64,000 nt of DNA, from IMG/VR virus record IMGVR_UViG_3300028197_000002. The stretch is one strand, 5' to 3'. This document shows, piece after piece, positions 3,037 through 59,335 of the stretch. The number at the start of each line of letters is the position of its first letter. The first letter of the stretch is position 1. Source of the DNA: a virus (lineage: Duplodnaviria > Caudoviricetes). Made by a program: the position numbers and the translations under genes. The notes beneath the pieces are model-generated. The model was not told the origin of the DNA. It did no database searches and saw only the letters and a program-made list of their open reading frames with translations.

Positions 3037-3870
3037 ATGCCAGACATCAGTAAAGTGCCAGAAGTTTTGTATCAAGGTCTTCAACCTTATCATGTACAAT
3101 ATGACAATCTACCTTTAGCAAATATATTAACGAGAATAGACTTAGTTAATAACCAAGTAGATATAAATGCAGATATTCTAAGAGGAGCTAACGGAACAGT
3201 TGGATCTTTAAGCAATAGGCTTTCTGTTGGCATTAATGATGACGGCACTTTAAAGTATGCTGCGGTTAACAATGTTCTTCACAATATAGGATATCATGTC
3301 GATGGAACATATGATGGCGTAGACTATGTAAGAATGAAAAGTGAAGAAAGAGATAAACTTTCTTTAATAGATTCCGAGGCCAATAAACTCTACATAGAAA
3401 TTGAGGATTCAATCCCAGTTTCTGCAATTTCTGCAGTGTCTTACATACCTAGCAACATAACTGTTTCCACTGGAACCCTGAGATTCAGAAGCACAGATAC
3501 AGTTAAGTTTGATTTTGAATCTCCAGATGTAATAAAAGCAAGATCTGTTTTTCCTGTGAGTAGTGCTCACCAACATCATTATGGATTATCTCCAGCTCAT
3601 CAAACACCATCAACTCCAGACTACAAAAACTTTATGACCACTTCTGTCAACACTCCTTTTATGGTAGGGACTCTTAGAGTATATGTAAACGGAATTAGAA
3701 TTTTAGATACAACTCCAACCTTAGTCCCAGCATATTCCGATGTGTCCACTTGGACAGAAACTTTTATAAGCTCTTCAACTGATACAAATGGCAATTTCAC
3801 ATTGAATAGAGCCTTGGCATCTAATGATGTAATAAGAATAGATTTTGATGAAGATCTGTCTGGTTCTTAA
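3037..3870 (+). CDS. Probable virion structural (tail-associated) protein
   Basis: Beta-rich, T/S-rich; C-terminal LRVYVNGIRI...FTLNRALASNDVIRIDF fold seen in phage tail proteins (inference). Confidence 0.45.
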   Translation: MPDISKVPEVLYQGLQPYHVQYDNLPLANILTRIDLVNNQVDINADILRGANGTVGSLSNRLSVGINDDGTLKYAAVNNVLHNIGYHVDGTYDGVDYVRMKSEERDKLSLIDSEANKLYIEIEDSIPVSAISAVSYIPSNITVSTGTLRFRSTDTVKFDFESPDVIKARSVFPVSSAHQHHYGLSPAHQTPSTPDYKNFMTTSVNTPFMVGTLRVYVNGIRILDTTPTLVPAYSDVSTWTETFISSSTDTNGNFTLNRALASNDVIRIDFDEDLSGS

Positions 3871-3881
3871 TCCTTAATGTA

Positions 3882-4418
3882 ATGAACAAAAACTTTGAAT
3901 TTATAATTTTATCTCCAAATTATAATATTGGAGGATTGAGAATTACTCTAAACTCTATAGAATGCTACTACCCAGATTCAAATGTTATTTGTGTAGTTAA
4001 CAAAGATGTTAAAAGCGATCAACTACAAGAAATGAAAAAGCATTGCAATTGCATTAGAAGTGGCAAAACAATTACATCTTTGATTAATAAAGGATATTCT
4101 AAAATAAAGTCTAATTGGGGAGTTTTAGTTCTTGAAGGAGCAAGAGTAAGTAGATGTTTGAACCGCTACAAAAACTGGATGGCTAGCAATGACGATATTT
4201 TCTTTCCTTTGATGGTGGAATTCAAAGGAGATAAAAAAATATTACATGATACTCTTTATAACTGTTCTTTAAATGGAATTTGCATACACAAAGAAATGTT
4301 CGACAAAGTAGGAAATTTTTCTGAAAACCCATTAGAAATATCAAGACGATTTTGGACTCTTCAAGCCTATGACGAAGGAGCGATATTCAAATCTGTCTTA
4401 GGGATCAGAATTTGTTAG
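3882..4418 (+). CDS. Glycosyltransferase-A-fold-like protein, divergent
   Basis: FIILSPNY..GLRITLNSI N-terminus and GNFSENPLEISRRFW resemble a GT2 fold; no clear DxD. Confidence 0.35.
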   Translation: MNKNFEFIILSPNYNIGGLRITLNSIECYYPDSNVICVVNKDVKSDQLQEMKKHCNCIRSGKTITSLINKGYSKIKSNWGVLVLEGARVSRCLNRYKNWMASNDDIFFPLMVEFKGDKKILHDTLYNCSLNGICIHKEMFDKVGNFSENPLEISRRFWTLQAYDEGAIFKSVLGIRIC

Positions 4419-46883: not shown

Positions 46884-47690
46884 ATGGAACTTTTAGTAGA
46901 ACATGACATGTCTCCCGGAACAGTTTATGAAAATAAATTAATTTTGGGTGGTGCGTGTTCCGCTGTTTTAAACGAAATGAATCTACATGAATCTTCGGGT
47001 GCTAATGGTACTTTAGTTAAATTCAAAGGTAAATTTCAAGAAGCAGAAGCGGTAAACAAAAACAAAAGAATGTATCCATTTGATGTTTTAGATTCTAATG
47101 TCAACGCATTAAATGAGTGTATTTCTAATGGAGGTTTAATTGGAGAATTAGACCATCCAACTGACTCTATTATTCATTTCGCAAATGCATCTCACAAAGT
47201 TAGCAAACTTTGGTGGGACGGCAAAACGCTAATGGGCGAGGGAGTCATTCTAAATACCCCAAGTGGTAAAATTCTAAAAGCACTCATCAATGATGGTGTG
47301 CGAGTAGGAATTAGCAGTAGGGGTGTTGGAAATGGTAAGGTTAACGAGGAAGGCATATTGGTAATCGGAGAAAGTTACAAGTTAATAACATTCGATGCTG
47401 TGGCTGATCCTAGTACCTCTCAAGCTTTTCAAGAGCGCGTAGTCTCAAAAGAAAGCATAGATTCTATTCCTGTGCCACAAGCAGTAGAAAGCAATAAATC
47501 AGAAGATTCTTTGGAAGCTGAAGTAGCTCAAGAGGCTATAGCGGTAGAGTCCAAAGAAGAAAAAGATGAAGTAATTGCTAATAAAAACGAATCTAGCAGC
47601 ATAGATAGATTAAGTAAAGATTTAATAATTGCTGCTTTTGGTAATATTGTTCAAGAACAAGCTAGTAAATTAAAAACGAGGTCGAGCTAA
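46884..47690 (+). CDS. gp21: Prohead maturation protease (T4 gp21-like)
   Basis: NKNKRMYP, GELDHP (His), GISSRGVG (Ser), ITFDAVADPS. Confidence 0.95.
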   Translation: MELLVEHDMSPGTVYENKLILGGACSAVLNEMNLHESSGANGTLVKFKGKFQEAEAVNKNKRMYPFDVLDSNVNALNECISNGGLIGELDHPTDSIIHFANASHKVSKLWWDGKTLMGEGVILNTPSGKILKALINDGVRVGISSRGVGNGKVNEEGILVIGESYKLITFDAVADPSTSQAFQERVVSKESIDSIPVPQAVESNKSEDSLEAEVAQEAIAVESKEEKDEVIANKNESSSIDRLSKDLIIAAFGNIVQEQASKLKTRSS

Positions 47691-48655: not shown

Positions 48656-50083
48656 ATGCAAGCAAACGCTAAATTTTTAAATGAAGCAAGAGAGCTTGAG
48701 TCTCGTTGGGCGCAAACCGGTTTGCTAGAGAACATCAATGACAAGTACACACGTTCTTGCACTGCCGTTCTTTTAGAAAACCAGAGGCTCATCAACGAAG
48801 CTTCTACTGACTCTGGTGATGTAAGCCAGTTCAAGAGAATCTCAATCCCTCTCGTAAGAAGAATATACCCACAGTTGATCGCAAATAAGGTCGTATCAGT
48901 TCAACCTTTACTTGGCCCAACTGGATTAGTTTATTACCTCAGATTCCGTTATGGAAGTAACAAGGGCGCTATTCGTGGTGCAACAAAAGCTGGATTCCCA
49001 GCTGATGATGCAAACTCGATGCAACAACTTGCTTCTGGTGATGGTAATCTTTCAGTTTACTACTCGCATCAGTTCGTTGAAAACGAAACTCAAGAAGATG
49101 CCGGTGGTGCAGCTGTTGTAAACCACGTTTTAGAGCATACTCCAGTTCTTGCTGGAACTCTAACAGGTACGGCTTATGACGGTGCAACTGCAGTTGCCAC
49201 ATTCGTCATTGACGAAAATGGTGCTGCAACTATGACCGACATTGGCACACCAGCAGTCACTGCTGATGACGCTGCTATTAACTTAACCACAGGCGCTTTG
49301 GATATCACATTCTCTGCTGACCCGGGTGTTAATAGTGTAGTTGTATCTTATGAGTACAACATGGAATGCAATGCTGATCTTCCAGAAGTCAATCTTGTTA
49401 TTGAAAGCGAAGAAATTGCAGCCAAAACTCGTAAGCTCAAAGCTGTTTGGTCATACGAAGCTCAACAAGATCTTCGTTCGCAGCACAATCTTGATGCAGA
49501 AGCTGAATTGACAGCTGTTCTTGCTCAAGAAATTAATCTTGAAATCGACCGTGAAGTTCTTGGTGACCTTCGCAACAATGCTGGTACAGTCGCTTCTTGG
49601 GACTTTAACACAGCACTTGGCGATACCATCAAAGAAAAATACGAGTCCCTCTATGTCAAAGTTGTTGAAGTCAGCAACGTTGTTCATCGTAAGACTCTTC
49701 GTGGTGGTTGTAACTGGATTGTCACAAGCCCAGAAGTTGCTTCGATCTTCGAAACAGCTACTGCCGGTTTTGCACCAGCTCCGGGTGAAGGTTTCACAAG
49801 TAGCCTCGGCATCCAGTATGTCGGCACTGTAAACAATCGCTGGAGACTCTATAAGGACCCACTTTTCCCAAGTGGTCAAGTTCTTATGGGTTACAAGGGT
49901 GATAGTTACATGGATAGTGGATACTTCTACTGCCCATACGTACCACTCACACAAACACCAGTGGTTCTCGATCCAGATTCCTTCTGCCCACGCAAGGGAA
50001 TTCTTACTCGATACGGCAAGAAATTACTCCGAGAAGGAGCAAAATTCTACGCCAGACTTTCGATTGCCAACTTCGTCATCTAA
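48656..50083 (+). CDS. gp23: Major capsid protein (T4 gp23-like)
   Basis: LLENQ, IPLVRR, VQPLLGPTGLVYYLR, AKTRKLKAVWSYEAQQDL, EINLEIDRE, FYCPYVPL, GILTRYG. Confidence 0.97.
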   Translation: MQANAKFLNEARELESRWAQTGLLENINDKYTRSCTAVLLENQRLINEASTDSGDVSQFKRISIPLVRRIYPQLIANKVVSVQPLLGPTGLVYYLRFRYGSNKGAIRGATKAGFPADDANSMQQLASGDGNLSVYYSHQFVENETQEDAGGAAVVNHVLEHTPVLAGTLTGTAYDGATAVATFVIDENGAATMTDIGTPAVTADDAAINLTTGALDITFSADPGVNSVVVSYEYNMECNADLPEVNLVIESEEIAAKTRKLKAVWSYEAQQDLRSQHNLDAEAELTAVLAQEINLEIDREVLGDLRNNAGTVASWDFNTALGDTIKEKYESLYVKVVEVSNVVHRKTLRGGCNWIVTSPEVASIFETATAGFAPAPGEGFTSSLGIQYVGTVNNRWRLYKDPLFPSGQVLMGYKGDSYMDSGYFYCPYVPLTQTPVVLDPDSFCPRKGILTRYGKKLLREGAKFYARLSIANFVI

Positions 50084-50279: not shown

Positions 50280-51464
50280 TTAATTTTTCCAACCATTTTC
50301 TAGTATTCTCATAGCATTAGAATACATTATTTTGTTTATAGTAGAATTGTGATATCCCATGCCTTCTAGGTATCTAACTATCCAAGGAAGATCTTCAACA
50401 TATGCTATTTCATCTGGAGGATCTGTAAATCCGTCAAAATCCGTACCTATAGCTGGAACTTCTTCTCCAGCAACATTTATTATATGATTTAAGGTTGATT
50501 CTACGTGATGAAGTCCTGACCCTTCTGGCTTGTGGGGAGAAAGCCAGTAATTCATAAATATAACACCTACAGTGCATTTTCTTTTAGCAAACCATTTAAG
50601 CTCATCATCAGATAAATTATACGGAAGTCTATGAAGTGCTTGTACGCCTACATGAGAAGCTATTACAGAGCAGTCTTTGTCGTAATCATCAACTATATTG
50701 TAAACATCTTGTCGGCCTTTAGGAGTTAAATGAGAAACATCTATTATCATTCCTATTTCTAGCATCTGCTTTGCTATTCGTTTTCCTAACTCTGTTAGTC
50801 CATATCTTTCATCCCAAGTTCTTCTTAAACTTACATAATTTTTAATTGTTTTTCTTTCTGGTTCTGGGTATGGGAAAACGCAAGATTTAGTTAATGGATT
50901 ATTATAAAAATGAGCGAGAGTAAGATAAGCACAACCTTTTTCACTTAGTTTATTCAAACATTCTGTAATCGAATATTCTGAGGATACTAGTGAATGACCT
51001 CCCTCGACAGAATGCACAACAGAAGAAATTCCTTTTTCTTGATTTTCAAACAACTCAATAGGATTTCTAGCTATTTTAATTCCAACTTCTTTTGAAATTT
51101 CTTTTTCTAAAAAATCCATCATTCCAATGCAAGCTTCATAAGGACTTGGATTCAATATTCTCTTTCTAAATAAAGGAGAAAATTTAGAAAGAAATTTTAT
51201 AAGTGGAACATCATTTAGCCATTCTTTTTCTAAAACATAAGTTGTAGCAAGAGTTACATTGATATTATCTCTGAGCAAAGGAATTGTACTTCTTTGACTT
51301 AAAGGCCAAAAACTATCTCTAAATAATTTTCCTAAAAACTTTCTTTTACTCAATGTTCTTTCAAGCATATATCCTTTTAAATGAACATGATTATGCAAGT
51401 CTACAATCTTTACTGGGAAATCGCTTGCAATGTGTCTGTCTGTCTTAAGCATATTACTAATCAT
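50280..51464 (-). CDS. Membrane dipeptidase (M19, amidohydrolase fold)
   Basis: DLHNH, HSVEGGH, LTLAH, DVSHL, ASHVG, IGTDFDG, KIMYSNAMR. Confidence 0.9.
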   Translation of the reverse strand: MISNMLKTDRHIASDFPVKIVDLHNHVHLKGYMLERTLSKRKFLGKLFRDSFWPLSQRSTIPLLRDNINVTLATTYVLEKEWLNDVPLIKFLSKFSPLFRKRILNPSPYEACIGMMDFLEKEISKEVGIKIARNPIELFENQEKGISSVVHSVEGGHSLVSSEYSITECLNKLSEKGCAYLTLAHFYNNPLTKSCVFPYPEPERKTIKNYVSLRRTWDERYGLTELGKRIAKQMLEIGMIIDVSHLTPKGRQDVYNIVDDYDKDCSVIASHVGVQALHRLPYNLSDDELKWFAKRKCTVGVIFMNYWLSPHKPEGSGLHHVESTLNHIINVAGEEVPAIGTDFDGFTDPPDEIAYVEDLPWIVRYLEGMGYHNSTINKIMYSNAMRILENGWKN

Positions 51465-51520: not shown

Positions 51521-51565
51521 AAAATAAAAAAAGCCGGTTAACAACATTTCTATTGTTAACCGGCT
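51521..51565 (-). terminator. Intrinsic terminator closing the ncRNA
   Basis: 13-bp stem agccggttaacaa/ttgttaaccggct, with a U-run on the minus strand. Confidence 0.85.
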
Positions 51566-52545
51566 CTCTTAGGCAGAACTTTCAATTTTCAATCCGCTAA
51601 TCTTTTGGGACAAACGAATCGAGCAAACATAGTCCATCACTGTTATTGTAGTAAATCACGGGTACGTTTCTGCCGTTGTGCTTTTAAACACACCCTTGGC
51701 TTATTTTGCCAACCCATGAGTGATAGTCGTAGTCTTTTAGCAACTCACTTTTCCTTAGCACTAATCAATTTCTTGCAGAATACTTGCCTGTTACCAGCAG
51801 CCCCTTCTGCGATTCTTTTCATAGTGATCCAAATTAATTTACTCCTAAAATTTACCACAACTTTCCTGTTATTATCGTGTTCAGGCAGACACGTCGTTTC
51901 TAAGATCTTTTTTGCGATGTTTACACATCTGATCTAGGCTCAACATCATTATTCACTACCGCCGTAGTTGCTCTGCACAAGGCAGAGGGCTTATCGAAAA
52001 CAAACTACTGAGTTTTCGATTTATCCCATGATGCTTATAGGATTGTTCTCAAGTTCTTTTGAGTTACTTTTCTTTCAAAAAATAATGCGTTCTCAAATTT
52101 CTTTAAGTCATTTGCCAGACTTTAATTTTATAACTATTTCTAATTATAAAATTTATAACCTAGCCATCCCATAACCGAAGCTCATCGTAGAGTTCCAAAA
52201 AGACTCTGCTATTATTAAAAACAATTTCGAATGAAGTTATTTTATAATTAGCACATTCTTGCGAATGTACTAGCTTCAAGATTAAGGCACTCTTGCGAAT
52301 GCAAAACCTTTCAGCAATAGTTCGATCCTTTCGTTCTGCTTCTACTAAGAATTTACAAACTTAGCTTTCACAGACCCAGCTCAAATAGGGTTTTGGCTTT
52401 TGTACTTAAAAATCTGCTTTCACAGATAATTAACCAGCCCTACGATTTATTTTTTTCACAAGCATCTTTCGATACTTGCAAGGACTTTTTTCAATTGTCA
52501 AAGATCAATTCAATGAGTTGTTGCTTCCAACGTGTCATTGATGTT
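51566..52545 (-). ncRNA. Candidate large structured ncRNA (~980 nt; ROOL/GOLLD-class or novel)
   Basis: No credible ORF on either strand. Minus-strand tetraloop hairpins: GAAA (52458-52479, 52412-52427), GCAA (52287-52302, 52251-52270), cUUCGg (52171-52185), GUAA (51916-51929, 51788-51797). Further stems and long-range pairing (51572-51578 with 51668-51674). Bracketed by promoter and terminator. Confidence 0.75.
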
Positions 52546-52549
52546 TCCC

Positions 52550-52577
52550 AATATAACGATTGCGTTTCATGTTGCAA
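52550..52577 (-). promoter_or_regulatory. sigma70-like promoter driving the ncRNA
   Basis: TTGCAA (52572-52577), 16 nt, TATATT (52550-52555) on the minus strand. Confidence 0.55.
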
Positions 52578-52806
52578 GCCCCTTGTCACAAAAAAACAAG
52601 TATTTCTTTTCTACCTCTAAAAAATAAGGGCTTATGCTTTTATTTCTTTGCAAAAATCTGTTTCAAAGTCTCTTCAAAACTCTAAAACTTTTTCTTTAGT
52701 TCAATCACAAAGGCTATAAATTCAACTTTATTTTTAATATTATTATTAAAAATAAAATAAAGCTTTATTTTTAATACATATTTCCAAAGGAATTTGGAGG
52801 TATTTT

Positions 52807-53652
52807 ATGAAAATAATTATATTTTTAATTGCTCTATTCTTTGCAATTTCACCTTGTTTAGCTGGAACTATAGAACCCGGAGTTCCTGATTCAAAATACT
52901 TAAAGTATGGAGAAAAGCACAATTGCGTACTCCCAATAATGGGACATTACGCCGATTCACTAAACAGATCTTTCAAAGGATCATGTGTATTAATTAGTGA
53001 AAATTATATCTTAACTGCTGCTCATGTGGTTTATGGCTCAATGACTCAGTATGTGGTTTATGAAGGGAAAGCCTATCCACTAAGCATTGTCGCTGTTCAT
53101 GCAGGGTTTGATCCAAAAAAAATGGGAACAAATGATATCGCAATAGGAAGACTGCAAAGGCCAATAAAATTAGATTTTTATCCAGAAATTTATAATAAAA
53201 AAGACGAGAAAGGCAAAGTGTGCAGTATGGCTGGATATGGAAACACAGGAACTTTTGACACTGGTTGGAAGCCAGAAAAATACGATCATAAAAAAAGAGC
53301 TGGATCTAATATGATTTTTAATATCGAAAAAAATTGCTTGTTGACATCAGTAACCGATCCTTCTGGTACCGATCTTGAATTTCTCATAGCTCCCGGAGAT
53401 TCAGGAGGAGGTTTATTCATTGACCAGAAGCTCGCAGGAATCAATTCAGCGGTAATTGCCGCAGACGGCAACCCAAACAGCGATTATGGCGATTTGGGCT
53501 GTCACACGCGTGTCAGTGACTATGTGGAGTGGATCTCAAAAACCCAAGAATTAATTGAAGTTCTTATTGATCTAGAGGAAAAACAAAAAGAAAAGAAGGA
53601 TGAGTTGCCGGAACTACTAAAAAAAGCAATTCGATCTAGAAAAGAAAGTTAA
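52807..53652 (+). CDS. Trypsin-like serine protease with signal peptide
   Basis: ILTAAHVV, NDIAIGRL, GDSGGGL; hydrophobic N-terminus with CLA cleavage-like site; GGAGG RBS. Confidence 0.92.
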   Translation: MKIIIFLIALFFAISPCLAGTIEPGVPDSKYLKYGEKHNCVLPIMGHYADSLNRSFKGSCVLISENYILTAAHVVYGSMTQYVVYEGKAYPLSIVAVHAGFDPKKMGTNDIAIGRLQRPIKLDFYPEIYNKKDEKGKVCSMAGYGNTGTFDTGWKPEKYDHKKRAGSNMIFNIEKNCLLTSVTDPSGTDLEFLIAPGDSGGGLFIDQKLAGINSAVIAADGNPNSDYGDLGCHTRVSDYVEWISKTQELIEVLIDLEEKQKEKKDELPELLKKAIRSRKES

Positions 53653-58246: not shown

Positions 58247-58320
58247 AATGAAAATTTATAAATTTAATTTCATAAACAATATATACTTCTGTAATGAAAC
58301 TTTAACATAGGAGGTTTATA

Positions 58321-58557
58321 ATGGCTTCATTTACACTTGATTTAGTAGGTGCTCCACGTAACATGGCTAGTGAGGGTGGACTTGACACATCAATTAATTA
58401 TTCTGGTGTCTCTCTACAAAGAACTGGTTACATCGAAACTGTTGACGCTAATGGAAACAGAAAGATGAACGTAAGAGTAGCTGACGGCGCAACTTTCACA
58501 GACGTTGCTCAAGCTCTCACAGATCTTACCAATGCTGGTCACAATTTCATTGTCTAA
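58321..58557 (+). CDS. Small protein, tandem paralog 1 of 3
   Basis: AGGAGG RBS; MASFTLDL...GHNFIV. Confidence 0.85.
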   Translation: MASFTLDLVGAPRNMASEGGLDTSINYSGVSLQRTGYIETVDANGNRKMNVRVADGATFTDVAQALTDLTNAGHNFIV

Positions 58558-58597
58558 TTTTAGACATATATTATAATTTTATTTTATCATTATAATA

Positions 58598-58628
58598 GCA
58601 AGCCTCGCCTTTTGGCGGGGCTTGTTTT
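58598..58628 (+). terminator. Intrinsic terminator after paralog 1
   Basis: gcaagcctcgcc-tttt-ggcggggcttgt followed by Ts. Confidence 0.8.
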
Positions 58629-58714
58629 ATGTAGAATGGAAATTTCTAAATCCAATTTCATTTTTCATAACAGTATATAATTTTGTAATGAAACTTTAAC
58701 ATAGGAGGTTTATA

Positions 58715-58993
58715 ATGGCTTCATTTACACTTGATTTAATAGGTGCTCCACTTAACATGGCTAGTGAGGGTGGACTTGACACAACGCTCGTTAATTTTGG
58801 CGATGATTCTGCGCAAAGAACTGGCTACATCGAAACTGTTGACGCTAATGGAAACAGAAAGATGAACGTAAAAATAGCTCCTCAAGTTCATGAATGGGCG
58901 TTTCAGTCCCTTAATTTTACAGACGTTCCTCAAACTCTCACAGATCTTACCAATGGTAATGTCCGTGGTCACAATTTCATTGTCGGAGCATAA
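58715..58993 (+). CDS. Small protein, tandem paralog 2 of 3 (insertion variant)
   Basis: Same leader and RBS; carries three divergent or inserted segments. Confidence 0.85.
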   Translation: MASFTLDLIGAPLNMASEGGLDTTLVNFGDDSAQRTGYIETVDANGNRKMNVKIAPQVHEWAFQSLNFTDVPQTLTDLTNGNVRGHNFIVGA

Positions 58994-59092
58994 TTTTAAC
59001 AGTCTAGTTTTAGACATATATTATAATTTTATTTTATCATTATAATAACAGTATATAATTCTGTAATGAAACTTTAACATAGGAGGTTTATA

Positions 59093-59335
59093 ATGGCTTC
59101 ATTCACACTTGATTTAGTAGGTGCTCCACTTAACATAGCTAGCGAGGGTGGACTTGACACATCAATTAGTTATTCTGGGGTCTCTCTACAAAGAACTGGT
59201 TACATCGAAACTGTTGACGCTAATGGAAACAGAAAGATGAATGTAAGAACGCCTGATGGTGCAACTTTTACAGATGTAGCTCAAACAATCGACATGCTTA
59301 CCAATGCAGGTCACAATTTCATTGTCGGAGCGTAA
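59093..59335 (+). CDS. Small protein, tandem paralog 3 of 3
   Basis: Same leader and RBS. Confidence 0.85.
   Translation: MASFTLDLVGAPLNIASEGGLDTSISYSGVSLQRTGYIETVDANGNRKMNVRTPDGATFTDVAQTIDMLTNAGHNFIVGA

Follow-up and report, generated by a model that had tools for sequence, protein, structure and literature searches.

Few structured RNAs longer than 500 nucleotides (nt) are known outside ribosomal RNA, the main ones being GOLLD, ROOL, OLE, group II introns and RNase P RNA. Discoveries of such RNAs have opened structural biology, most recently through the RNA-only nanocages formed by GOLLD and ROOL (PMC12286853). Here we analyse a locus on the minus strand of a 64,000-nt stretch of viral DNA (Duplodnaviria; Caudoviricetes; IMG/VR record IMGVR_UViG_3300028197_000002), referred to in its full length as the window, and find that it very probably encodes a structured phage RNA of very large size that acts in trans and represents a genuine class not described before.

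Among the closest described systems, the new RNA recalls GOLLD, which is phage- or prophage-encoded, independently folded and very large (many members exceed 800 nt; PMC12286853), has many helices and pseudoknots and no known function, occurs in lake and marine metagenomes and has no obligatory protein partner encoded alongside. It differs from GOLLD in that the Rfam GOLLD model failed to match it at all thresholds applied, in not lying beside transfer RNA (tRNA) genes, where GOLLD often sits in tRNA islands, in being conserved over its full length, where GOLLD combines a conserved 3′ half with a variable 5′ half, and in being longer (0.9–1.0 kilobases (kb)) and limited to a narrow clade of huge phages. 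ROOL (Rumen-Originating, Ornate, Large) is likewise phage-associated, large and ornate, with pseudoknots, no known protein partner and no known function (PMC12286853, PMC5737381). It occurs in gut, rumen and Lactobacillales prophages, whereas the new RNA is found in freshwater huge phages, is about 1.5 times longer, has no tRNA association and does not match the Rfam ROOL model. GOLLD forms a 14-mer cage and ROOL an octameric one.

More distant systems share some of its traits. OLE is also large (~600 nt) and ornate, and its highly conserved unpaired nucleotides point to a role beyond that of a scaffold, but it is chromosomal in extremophilic Firmicutes and has dedicated partner genes (oapA and others); the new RNA has no conserved neighbour and no Rfam match to OLE. 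RNase P RNA and group II introns are structural analogues only: they too are multi-domain wheels closed by long-range helices, with dense GNRA tetraloops, long-range tertiary pairings and conservation centred on junctions, but the new RNA lacks an Rfam match to them, exon context and a splice-site consensus, and its AGUCC helix covaries and has no bulged U. The pRNA of phi29 is phage-encoded, independently transcribed, structured and a trans-acting multimer, and the window copy of the new RNA lies near head genes; pRNA is 174 nt long and belongs to phi29-like podophages, there is no homology, and the new RNA does not keep its place near head genes in other genomes.

A stand-alone gene for a non-coding RNA

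The initial annotation had placed an independently transcribed, densely structured RNA in 51521–52577, a gap in a gene-dense genome overlain by low-quality antisense frames. The gap is real: with open reading frames (ORFs) of at least 80 amino acids (aa) masked, the largest ORF-free stretch of the window is 51938–52806, the remainder of the flagged region is broken by one 110-aa antisense ORF, and the sole further gap of at least 350 nt lies at 58247–58714. The overlying ORFs are short, and homologs do not preserve those that run antisense. The transcription unit comprises:

51527–52543, minus strand: RNA gene of ~1,015 nt, supported by folding energy against shuffles, full-length nhmmer and covariance-model homologs and consensus pairs
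52550–52577, minus strand: sigma-70-type promoter from a consensus scan, with −35 box TTGCAA (52577–52572), 16-base-pair (bp) spacer and −10 box TATATT (52555–52550)
51521–51567, minus strand: intrinsic terminator (helix H39) with a 17-bp stem, an AGAAAU loop and a U-run

The start of the RNA is predicted about 7 nt past the −10 box, give or take 3 nt, and its 3′ end falls within the U-run past the terminator. A terminator scan returned the same hairpin (51570–51527), GC-anchored and long, with the T-run behind it.

We folded the 1,031 nt between promoter and terminator and compared the result with dinucleotide shuffles. The minus strand reached a minimum free energy of −298.3 kcal/mol against −231.6 ± 7.8 for shuffles (z = −8.6), and the plus strand −221.1 against −191.0 ± 8.3 (z = −3.6), an asymmetry expected when G–U pairs contribute in a real RNA. 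When the sequence was folded in 200-nt segments, the signal was confined to 51530–52529, where four of five segments had z between −3.4 and −5.8, and flanking coding sequence gave z of about 0. The flagged observation is real and lies well beyond chance.

Homologs in freshwater huge phages

The first homolog was found by nhmmer at one of 80 IMG/VR loci around close homologs (±8 kb) of the T4-type major capsid gene, gp23, and a location beside gp23 is therefore not conserved. Exact patterns taken from conserved blocks of this first pairwise alignment were then scanned on IMG/VR, JGI/ENA metagenome contigs and GTDB genomes, and a covariance model, R1, of the best-conserved 158 positions was run on the full records of 55 related contigs, recovering two members that the first patterns had missed. 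With every member confirmed by nhmmer or cmsearch, homologs are present in 12 other environmental contigs from approximately nine independent lineages, all of them viral or metagenome contigs:

L094
L095, on an 83-kb contig
L096
L097, on the same 323-kb contig as L066 and L160
L098, on the same 251-kb contig as L125
L119, on the same contig as L135
L145
L147, 5′ end cut; 96% identical to the window over 5.2 kb and thus the same phage species
L163, 5′ end cut
L196, on a 143-kb contig
L197, on a 343-kb contig; core of 63% G+C
L202, 5′ end cut

R1 scored 144 bits in the window and 84–168 bits at 11 other loci, and the G+C content of the core ranged from 41% to 63%. Each of three large contigs searched whole held a single copy. 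A blastn search of the RNA against 50,697 GenBank phage records gave no match. Among prokaryotes, where ~185,000 species were scanned with an exact pattern at one genome per species, there were 17 matches, all attributable to chance because none fits the RNA profile, and by that exact pattern no cellular or prophage copy was found.

Both transcription signals called in the initial annotation hold their position across the family. Every homolog that retains 5′ sequence has a TTG-type −35 box (TTGCAA, TTGTAA, TTGCGA, TTGACA and others), and the −10 box conforms to TAnnnT at the same alignment position (TATATT, TACAAT, TATACT, TAGAAT, TATCAT, TAGACT), with the exception of L197 (TAAAAG). The spacer stays at 16–17 bp and its sequence drifts while the promoter position is kept. 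A G-run lies immediately upstream of the window promoter; the homologs have A/T tracts farther upstream. This pattern resembles a functional host-polymerase promoter and, by analogy with the early promoters of T4, suggests early expression. At the other end, the H39 stem is 98.8% paired with double changes at 9 of its 17 pairs, and its loop is AGAAAU in 11 of 12 aligned sequences (UGAAAU in L145). Promoter and terminator are kept in position in every full-length homolog. We also considered GGGGCTTG, which lies upstream of the −35 box, as a shared phage promoter motif and rejected it: of its three other copies in the window, two each form the 3′ half of a terminator hairpin and one is at an unremarkable site.

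The homologs also bear on whether the region could be coding, as a decayed gene, a gene in an alternative code or the messenger of a small peptide. Short ORFs do lie over it (110 and 75 aa antisense; 32–39 aa sense, with GTG or TTG starts), and some huge phages use recoded stops. Yet the longest open stretch in the six frames is 125 codons under code 11, and in none of ten homologs does a frame run through the whole region, be it with the standard code or with TGA, TAG or TAA reassigned. In most other members the antisense ORFs of the window are interrupted by one or more stops whichever frame is read. Sense ORFs that start with ATG and have 20 or more codons show no conservation of position and are absent from L097; homolog indels are not multiples of three, and substitutions in helices are compensatory. 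A long ORF is refuted; a conserved micropeptide of fewer than 20 aa is conceivable, but we consider a coding role of any kind extremely improbable.

A second alternative is that the RNA is a cis-acting leader, such as a giant riboswitch, an attenuator or a long 5′ untranslated region, of the downstream M19 peptidase gene. That gene lies on the same strand 63 nt past the terminator stem, an arrangement repeated in L147, which is the same phage species. Every other lineage has a different or convergent downstream gene (a DUF5122 propeller, an unknown 398-aa protein and others), and the RNA is absent from all 13 IMG/VR loci with M19 homologs (39–53% identity), so that the two are not linked. The terminator is strong and conserved, its loop is near-invariant, and no alternative anti-terminator pairing is evident. 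A leader is very improbable. We likewise dropped an antisense target within the window, to the rest of which the best complementarity is 13–14 nt with E of at least 0.2, the level expected by chance.

The region is a stand-alone, single-copy gene for a presumably stable, probably trans-acting non-coding RNA of ~1 kb, and its carriers form a small clade of huge phages that live in fresh water and have a T4-type capsid.

A conserved fold with two tertiary pairings

RNAalifold applied to MAFFT alignments of 7, 10 and 12 sequences gave one architecture throughout. In the 10-sequence alignment the consensus has 39 helices and 254 pairs, with 93.1% of cells canonical against 36–45% in controls in which the 3′ partners were slid by 1–3 columns, and double (compensatory) changes occur at 145 of the 254 pairs against 34–40 in the slid controls. 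The fold is a wheel of five or six domains closed by AGUCC/GGACU. Its nested parts are, from the 5′ end:

52498–52541, minus strand: 5′ leader, with H1 (UCAAUGA/UCUUUGA) around a small GNRA-type hairpin, H3, followed by invariant single-stranded UUGACAAUU
52482–52486, minus strand: 5′ strand (AGUCC) of the closing helix H4, 100% paired
51631–51635, minus strand: 3′ strand (GGACU) of H4, directly stacked on H35
52458–52479, minus strand: hairpin H5, GCAAGUAUC-GAAA-GAUGCUUGU, with a GNRA loop; nine pairs, six compensatory, 97% paired
52185–52445, minus strand: H6 domain, closed by H6 (UCGUAGGG/CUCUACGA) and holding GAAA-tipped H7 and H8–H14
51936–52183, minus strand: central domain, closed by H15 (GAGCUUCG/UGAGCCU), with H16–H23 and H24–H27
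51871–52034, minus strand: most conserved core, H24–H29, the basis of R1
51726–51861, minus strand: long, irregular arm H30–H34 with a near-invariant CUG-GUAA-CAG tip
51636–51724, minus strand: domain H35–H37, whose internal loops give one strand to each tertiary pairing
51589–51622, minus strand: hairpin H38, UCGAUUCGUUU/UAGCGGAUUGA; 11 pairs, four with double changes, 97% paired

The strands of H4 enclose ~850 nt, and in L119 the helix reads GAUCC/GGAUC, a double compensatory change at two pairs. In the leader, H3 covaries at two of four pairs, and H1 is conserved with G–U changes only. H6 joins UCGUAGGG (52445–52438) to CUCUACGA (52192–52185) with double changes at 6 of 8 pairs, and such changes are also found at 7 of 11 pairs in H7, 10 of 14 in H13–H14 and 27 of the 44 pairs in the five helices H30–H34. 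H28 and H29 are small hairpins, and H35 pairs AUCAC (51724–51720) with GUGAU (51640–51636).

Conservation is highest at unpaired nucleotides in the junctions of the central domain (GAACGCA, GGGAUAA, GAGCAA, a GGCG loop and GAAUA), whose sub-domains are H18–H23, including H19, a long AU hairpin with a GAAA tip, and H24–H27; UGAGCC and GAAACGACG are further strongly conserved in primary sequence. H15, which closes this domain together with H16, has five invariant pairs and never covaries, and so is no more than a plausible helix.

We searched for covarying helices among columns left unpaired in the nested structure and obtained two clear cases, PK1 and PK2:

52005–52009, minus strand: 5′ strand of PK1, AGUAG, in the apical loop of H26 (by covariation)
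51650–51654, minus strand: 3′ strand of PK1, UUACU, in an internal loop of H35–H37 (by covariation)
51668–51674, minus strand: 5′ strand of PK2, GGCAGAA, in the H36 domain (by covariation)
51572–51578, minus strand: 3′ strand of PK2, UUCUGCC, between H38 and the terminator

PK1 is a long-range loop-to-loop contact with 98% of cells paired, against 15–75% when slid, and double changes at three of five pairs (for example U–A, C–G and U–G). PK2, a long-range pairing already noticed in the initial annotation, is 95.7% paired against 41–68% when slid, with double changes at four of seven pairs; it occurs as GGCAGAA/UUCUGCC, GGUAGAG/UUCUAUC and GGUAUC/GAUGCC, and L196 forms 9 bp. Because its 3′ partner lies outside the closing helix, PK2 creates a pseudoknot. 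Both pairings also hold, on reading the alignment by eye, in the two most divergent members, L196 and L197. Together they link the central domain, the domain at the 3′ side and the 3′ tail to one another.

The family consensus also sorts the individual hairpins that had been proposed for the window sequence. H5, AUCUGU-GAAA-GCAGAU (the tip of H7), CUG-GUAA-CAG (H34) and the helix AUCGAAAAC/GUUUUCGAU (H26) are supported by both consensus and covariation. Two GCAA hairpins and GAUGU-GUAA-ACAUC (51925–51912) belong to extra sequence of the window, other lineages being shorter or different there, although L119 keeps a small hairpin of its own at the latter site. The extra sequence in the H6 domain comprises 52387–52330 and 52310–52258, the latter holding the two GCAA hairpins; both are gaps in all seven other members that cover the region, and L147 is cut off before it. 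A proposed cUUCGg tetraloop is not conserved (CAUCG, CGUCG and CAGUCG elsewhere), and in the consensus its sequence is instead a strand of GGGCUUCG/UGAGCCU, the plausible H15. A local UAGGG/CCCUA helix exists in the window only, and the family forms H6 in its place. In all, at least seven apical tetraloops of GNRA type are conserved (H3, H5, H7, H19, H23, H34 and H39). The near-invariance of the terminator loop AGAAAU, and its identity with the H19 loop, suggest that the terminator hairpin takes part in the tertiary structure. The window copy also has 11-nt tetraloop-receptor motifs (UAUGG/CCUAAG), which the family does not conserve.

Promoter and terminator, strand-specific folding energy, homologs on 12 contigs, covariation and the absence of a conserved frame together bear out the independently transcribed, structured minus-strand RNA of ~1 kb that the initial annotation had proposed.

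Relation to known RNA families

The initial annotation had offered two options, an unusually long member of a ROOL- or GOLLD-like class or a new class. We ran cmscan with the 4,227 models of Rfam 15, and at gathering thresholds the whole window gave no match. No match to GOLLD, ROOL, OLE, raiA, HEARO, RNase P, transfer-messenger RNA (tmRNA) or introns was obtained for the window copy (1.5-kb region) at E ≤ 10, for L119, L095 and L094 at E ≤ 5, or for the G+C-richer L196 and L197 at E ≤ 10; the sole matches under permissive filters were to small-RNA and microRNA models at chance level (E ≥ 0.12). The nulls on five family members favour the new class, and the option of an overlong ROOL or GOLLD falls with them. 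They also agree, together with the ARAGORN result of no tmRNA, with the stated lack of tmRNA, RNase P and group I/II intron signatures.

It might still be argued that the RNA is a divergent or overlong member of a described large family (GOLLD, ROOL, OLE, raiA, RNase P, tmRNA or an intron). It shares with GOLLD and ROOL that it is phage-encoded, longer than 500 nt and rich in junctions and pseudoknots (PMC12286853), and short motifs, a long-range AAAGUCC strand and a CUGGUAACAG hairpin, recall the RNase P RNA of E. coli. Set against this are the null results above, and the RNA has its own promoter and terminator and interrupts no gene, unlike an intron. We consider such a membership highly improbable.

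In RNase P RNA, helix P4 has near-invariant nucleotides and a bulged U, and the conserved regions are CR-I to CR-V. AGUCC/GGACU is a perfect 5-bp helix that covaries in L119, unlike P4, and we rejected the resemblance of AAAGUCC and CUGGUAACAG on the grounds that the helix lacks a bulged U and covaries and that there is no Rfam match. The RNase P element ACAGAA...GGCUUA was not seen in the window or the aligned homologs. A group I or II intron was rejected as well, since the RNA is flanked by intergenic sequence between divergent or convergent genes, has its own promoter and terminator and matches no Rfam model.

The RNA has the hallmarks of a large ornate non-coding RNA: it is longer than 500 nt and non-coding, and it has a covarying multi-junction fold, pseudoknots and conserved unpaired nucleotides. 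Ornate phage RNAs are a known phenomenon, and among them this RNA forms a new class, unrelated to GOLLD and ROOL in sequence and structure.

Genomic setting

In the window the RNA lies just downstream of a T4-type head module on the plus strand, as the initial annotation had noted, and between genes for two peptidases. The main neighbours are:

46884–47690, plus strand: S77 prohead protease
48656–50083, plus strand: Gp23 major capsid protein (Pfam E = 3e-85)
50280–51464, minus strand: M19 membrane dipeptidase, just downstream of the RNA (Pfam E = 1.8e-46)
52807–53652, plus strand: trypsin-like serine protease, divergent from the RNA promoter

The dipeptidase and the protease are unusual cargo beside a head module; a pattern search found no IMG/VR relatives of the protease.

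The capsid protein is 79–90% identical to those of many IMG/VR contigs. Its best match among deposited phages is in an uncultured huge phage of 595 kb, LR756511.1 (523509–524981; 74.9% aa identity), the rest being below 34%. Several homolog contigs are fragments of 143–343 kb that carry a T4-type capsid gene. CheckV estimated related contigs of 251–343 kb as 50–69% complete (the 323-kb contig 64%, the 251-kb contig 50%), which points to genomes of ~500 kb and to a huge phage with a T4-type capsid as the host of the RNA; the label 'T4-like phage' alone describes the virus less well. In LR756511.1 the R1 matches, of 19–20 bits, fall within long ORFs (857 aa and over 1,040 aa) and are spurious, and no comparable ORF-free gap was found near its gp23.

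ARAGORN detected no tRNA or tmRNA gene in the window, and at the nine homolog loci it found tRNAs at only two, more than 3 kb from the RNA, and no tmRNA; the absence of adjacent tRNA genes, stated at the outset for the window, also holds at these loci. On the contig of the L119 RNA, ARAGORN reported a tRNA with the four-base anticodon tttg (L135 38–113, plus strand), which may be a frameshift-suppressor-like tRNA or a miscall.

Flanking genes vary by lineage (M19 peptidase, DUF5122 beta-propeller, LamG-type lectin, TnsA-like endonuclease, metallophosphoesterase and unknowns), and often they converge on the RNA or diverge from it. These differing flanks, with the single copy, suggest that the RNA acts in trans. 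When the ORFs found up to ~10 kb away from the RNA in 11 lineages were compared all against all, only one small protein family emerged, common to four lineages, which we read as residual synteny; a second 'family' consisted of spurious ORFs antisense to the RNA itself.

Other features near the RNA deserve mention. Three tandem paralogous small ORFs (MASFTLDL..., ~78–92 aa) lie at 58320–59334 on the plus strand of the window, with a strong, GC-rich terminator hairpin behind the first two at least, and homologs occur 2–3 kb from the RNA at L097 1473–1937, L098 9180–9617 and L201 1703–2257; they may encode an abundant structural or decoration protein. Large DUF5122 beta-propeller proteins adjoin the RNA in related lineages (L096 3978–6479, L097 1999–4332 and L098 6704–9118), and in L097 and L098 a 949-aa LamG/ConA-like lectin protein is on its other side; these proteins probably serve host recognition or decoration in a variable region. 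In L095 only, a TnsA-like, phage endonuclease I-like gene (3329–4060, minus strand) lies directly upstream and divergent, possibly a hint that the cassette with the RNA changes its place in the genome.

A role in virion assembly or DNA packaging, like that of phi29 pRNA, would explain the capsid-side position. In the window, 1.5 kb separate the RNA from the major capsid gene. Three other lineages have it at 2–3 kb from genes homologous to a tandem triplicate of the window, which encodes a small protein with probably high expression; there it adjoins beta-propeller and lectin-like proteins that could be structural; and its many GNRA loops could mediate multimer formation. However, the capsid-side position is not conserved: the distance to gp23 grows from ~1.5 kb there to between ~6 and 79 kb in other genomes, and the orientation varies. 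The promoter resembles the early host-polymerase type, not a late one, the closest complete relative appears to have no such RNA, and there is no similarity to pRNA in sequence or size. T4-type packaging motors are not known to need an RNA. We consider a packaging role improbable.

Possible role of the RNA

Several points weigh against the view that this is a new class of trans-acting RNA. We infer the transcript, its ends and its stability from sequence signals, and we only infer whether it serves as a particle, a scaffold or a ribozyme. In column shuffles, 68 ± 5.6 pairs showed double changes and none of 500 shuffles reached the observed 145, but with approximately nine independent lineages kinship inflates such shuffle-based statistics, and the slid-partner control is fairer. 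In the 12-sequence core alignment fitted by covariance model (A7), 98.1% of cells are paired and double changes occur at 21 of 33 pairs against 3–7 when slid, though this alignment leans towards the model by construction. H1, H15 and several junction features are invariant and so lack covariation support. The closest complete relative by capsid protein, LR756511.1, appears to be without the RNA, which is thus not essential to the whole clade. Finally, the size of the family is uncertain because the collections were scanned with exact patterns only; it is probably somewhat larger.

On the reading we prefer, that of a new class of trans-acting RNA, transcription would most likely be by unmodified host RNA polymerase, and hence early in infection, and the transcript would end at the intrinsic terminator, whose hairpin belongs to the conserved structure. 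The three-dimensional fold would be the functional entity, acting in trans, not through antisense pairing or cis-regulation. During infection the RNA would most likely be a discrete particle, as proposed for GOLLD and ROOL, which would either associate with itself or use the conserved central junction to bind a macromolecule of the host or the phage.

As to its mode of action, a homo-oligomeric or RNA-only particle, by analogy with the cages of GOLLD and ROOL, is possible but by itself somewhat unlikely, and much the same can be said of a scaffold or decoy for a protein, tRNA or ribosome partner. A ribozyme seems unlikely, yet the invariant unpaired nucleotides make it a serious alternative; some other mode of action we hold to be equally unlikely. 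More speculatively, the RNA could be the founding member of a new giant (~1 kb) ornate class specific to ~500-kb huge phages, and either a natural ribozyme of a new kind or an RNA-only particle, likewise new, that assembles itself, with its compact, invariant pseudoknotted junction core acting on a host component (tRNA, ribosome or defence protein) early in infection. We put this forward tentatively, as a view with slightly less in its favour than against it. If true, no larger structured RNA, ribosomal ones aside, would be known from any phage.

A previous large-scale structured-RNA screen of IMG/VR reported 8,495 motifs, of only 29–151 nt (PMC10690425), and these sizes suggest that RNAs as large as this one may be systematically missed; short pieces of the new RNA may be among those motifs. 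To the few large structured RNAs known, it adds an unrelated and longer example with unusually clean covariation and a well-defined transcription unit. Since its core tolerates G+C contents from 41% to 63%, the family offers ready constructs for cryogenic electron microscopy and biochemistry. Its restriction to a clade of freshwater huge phages means that an RNA component joins the unusual functions of those genomes, and raises the question of why a 500-kb phage needs a folded RNA of 1 kb.

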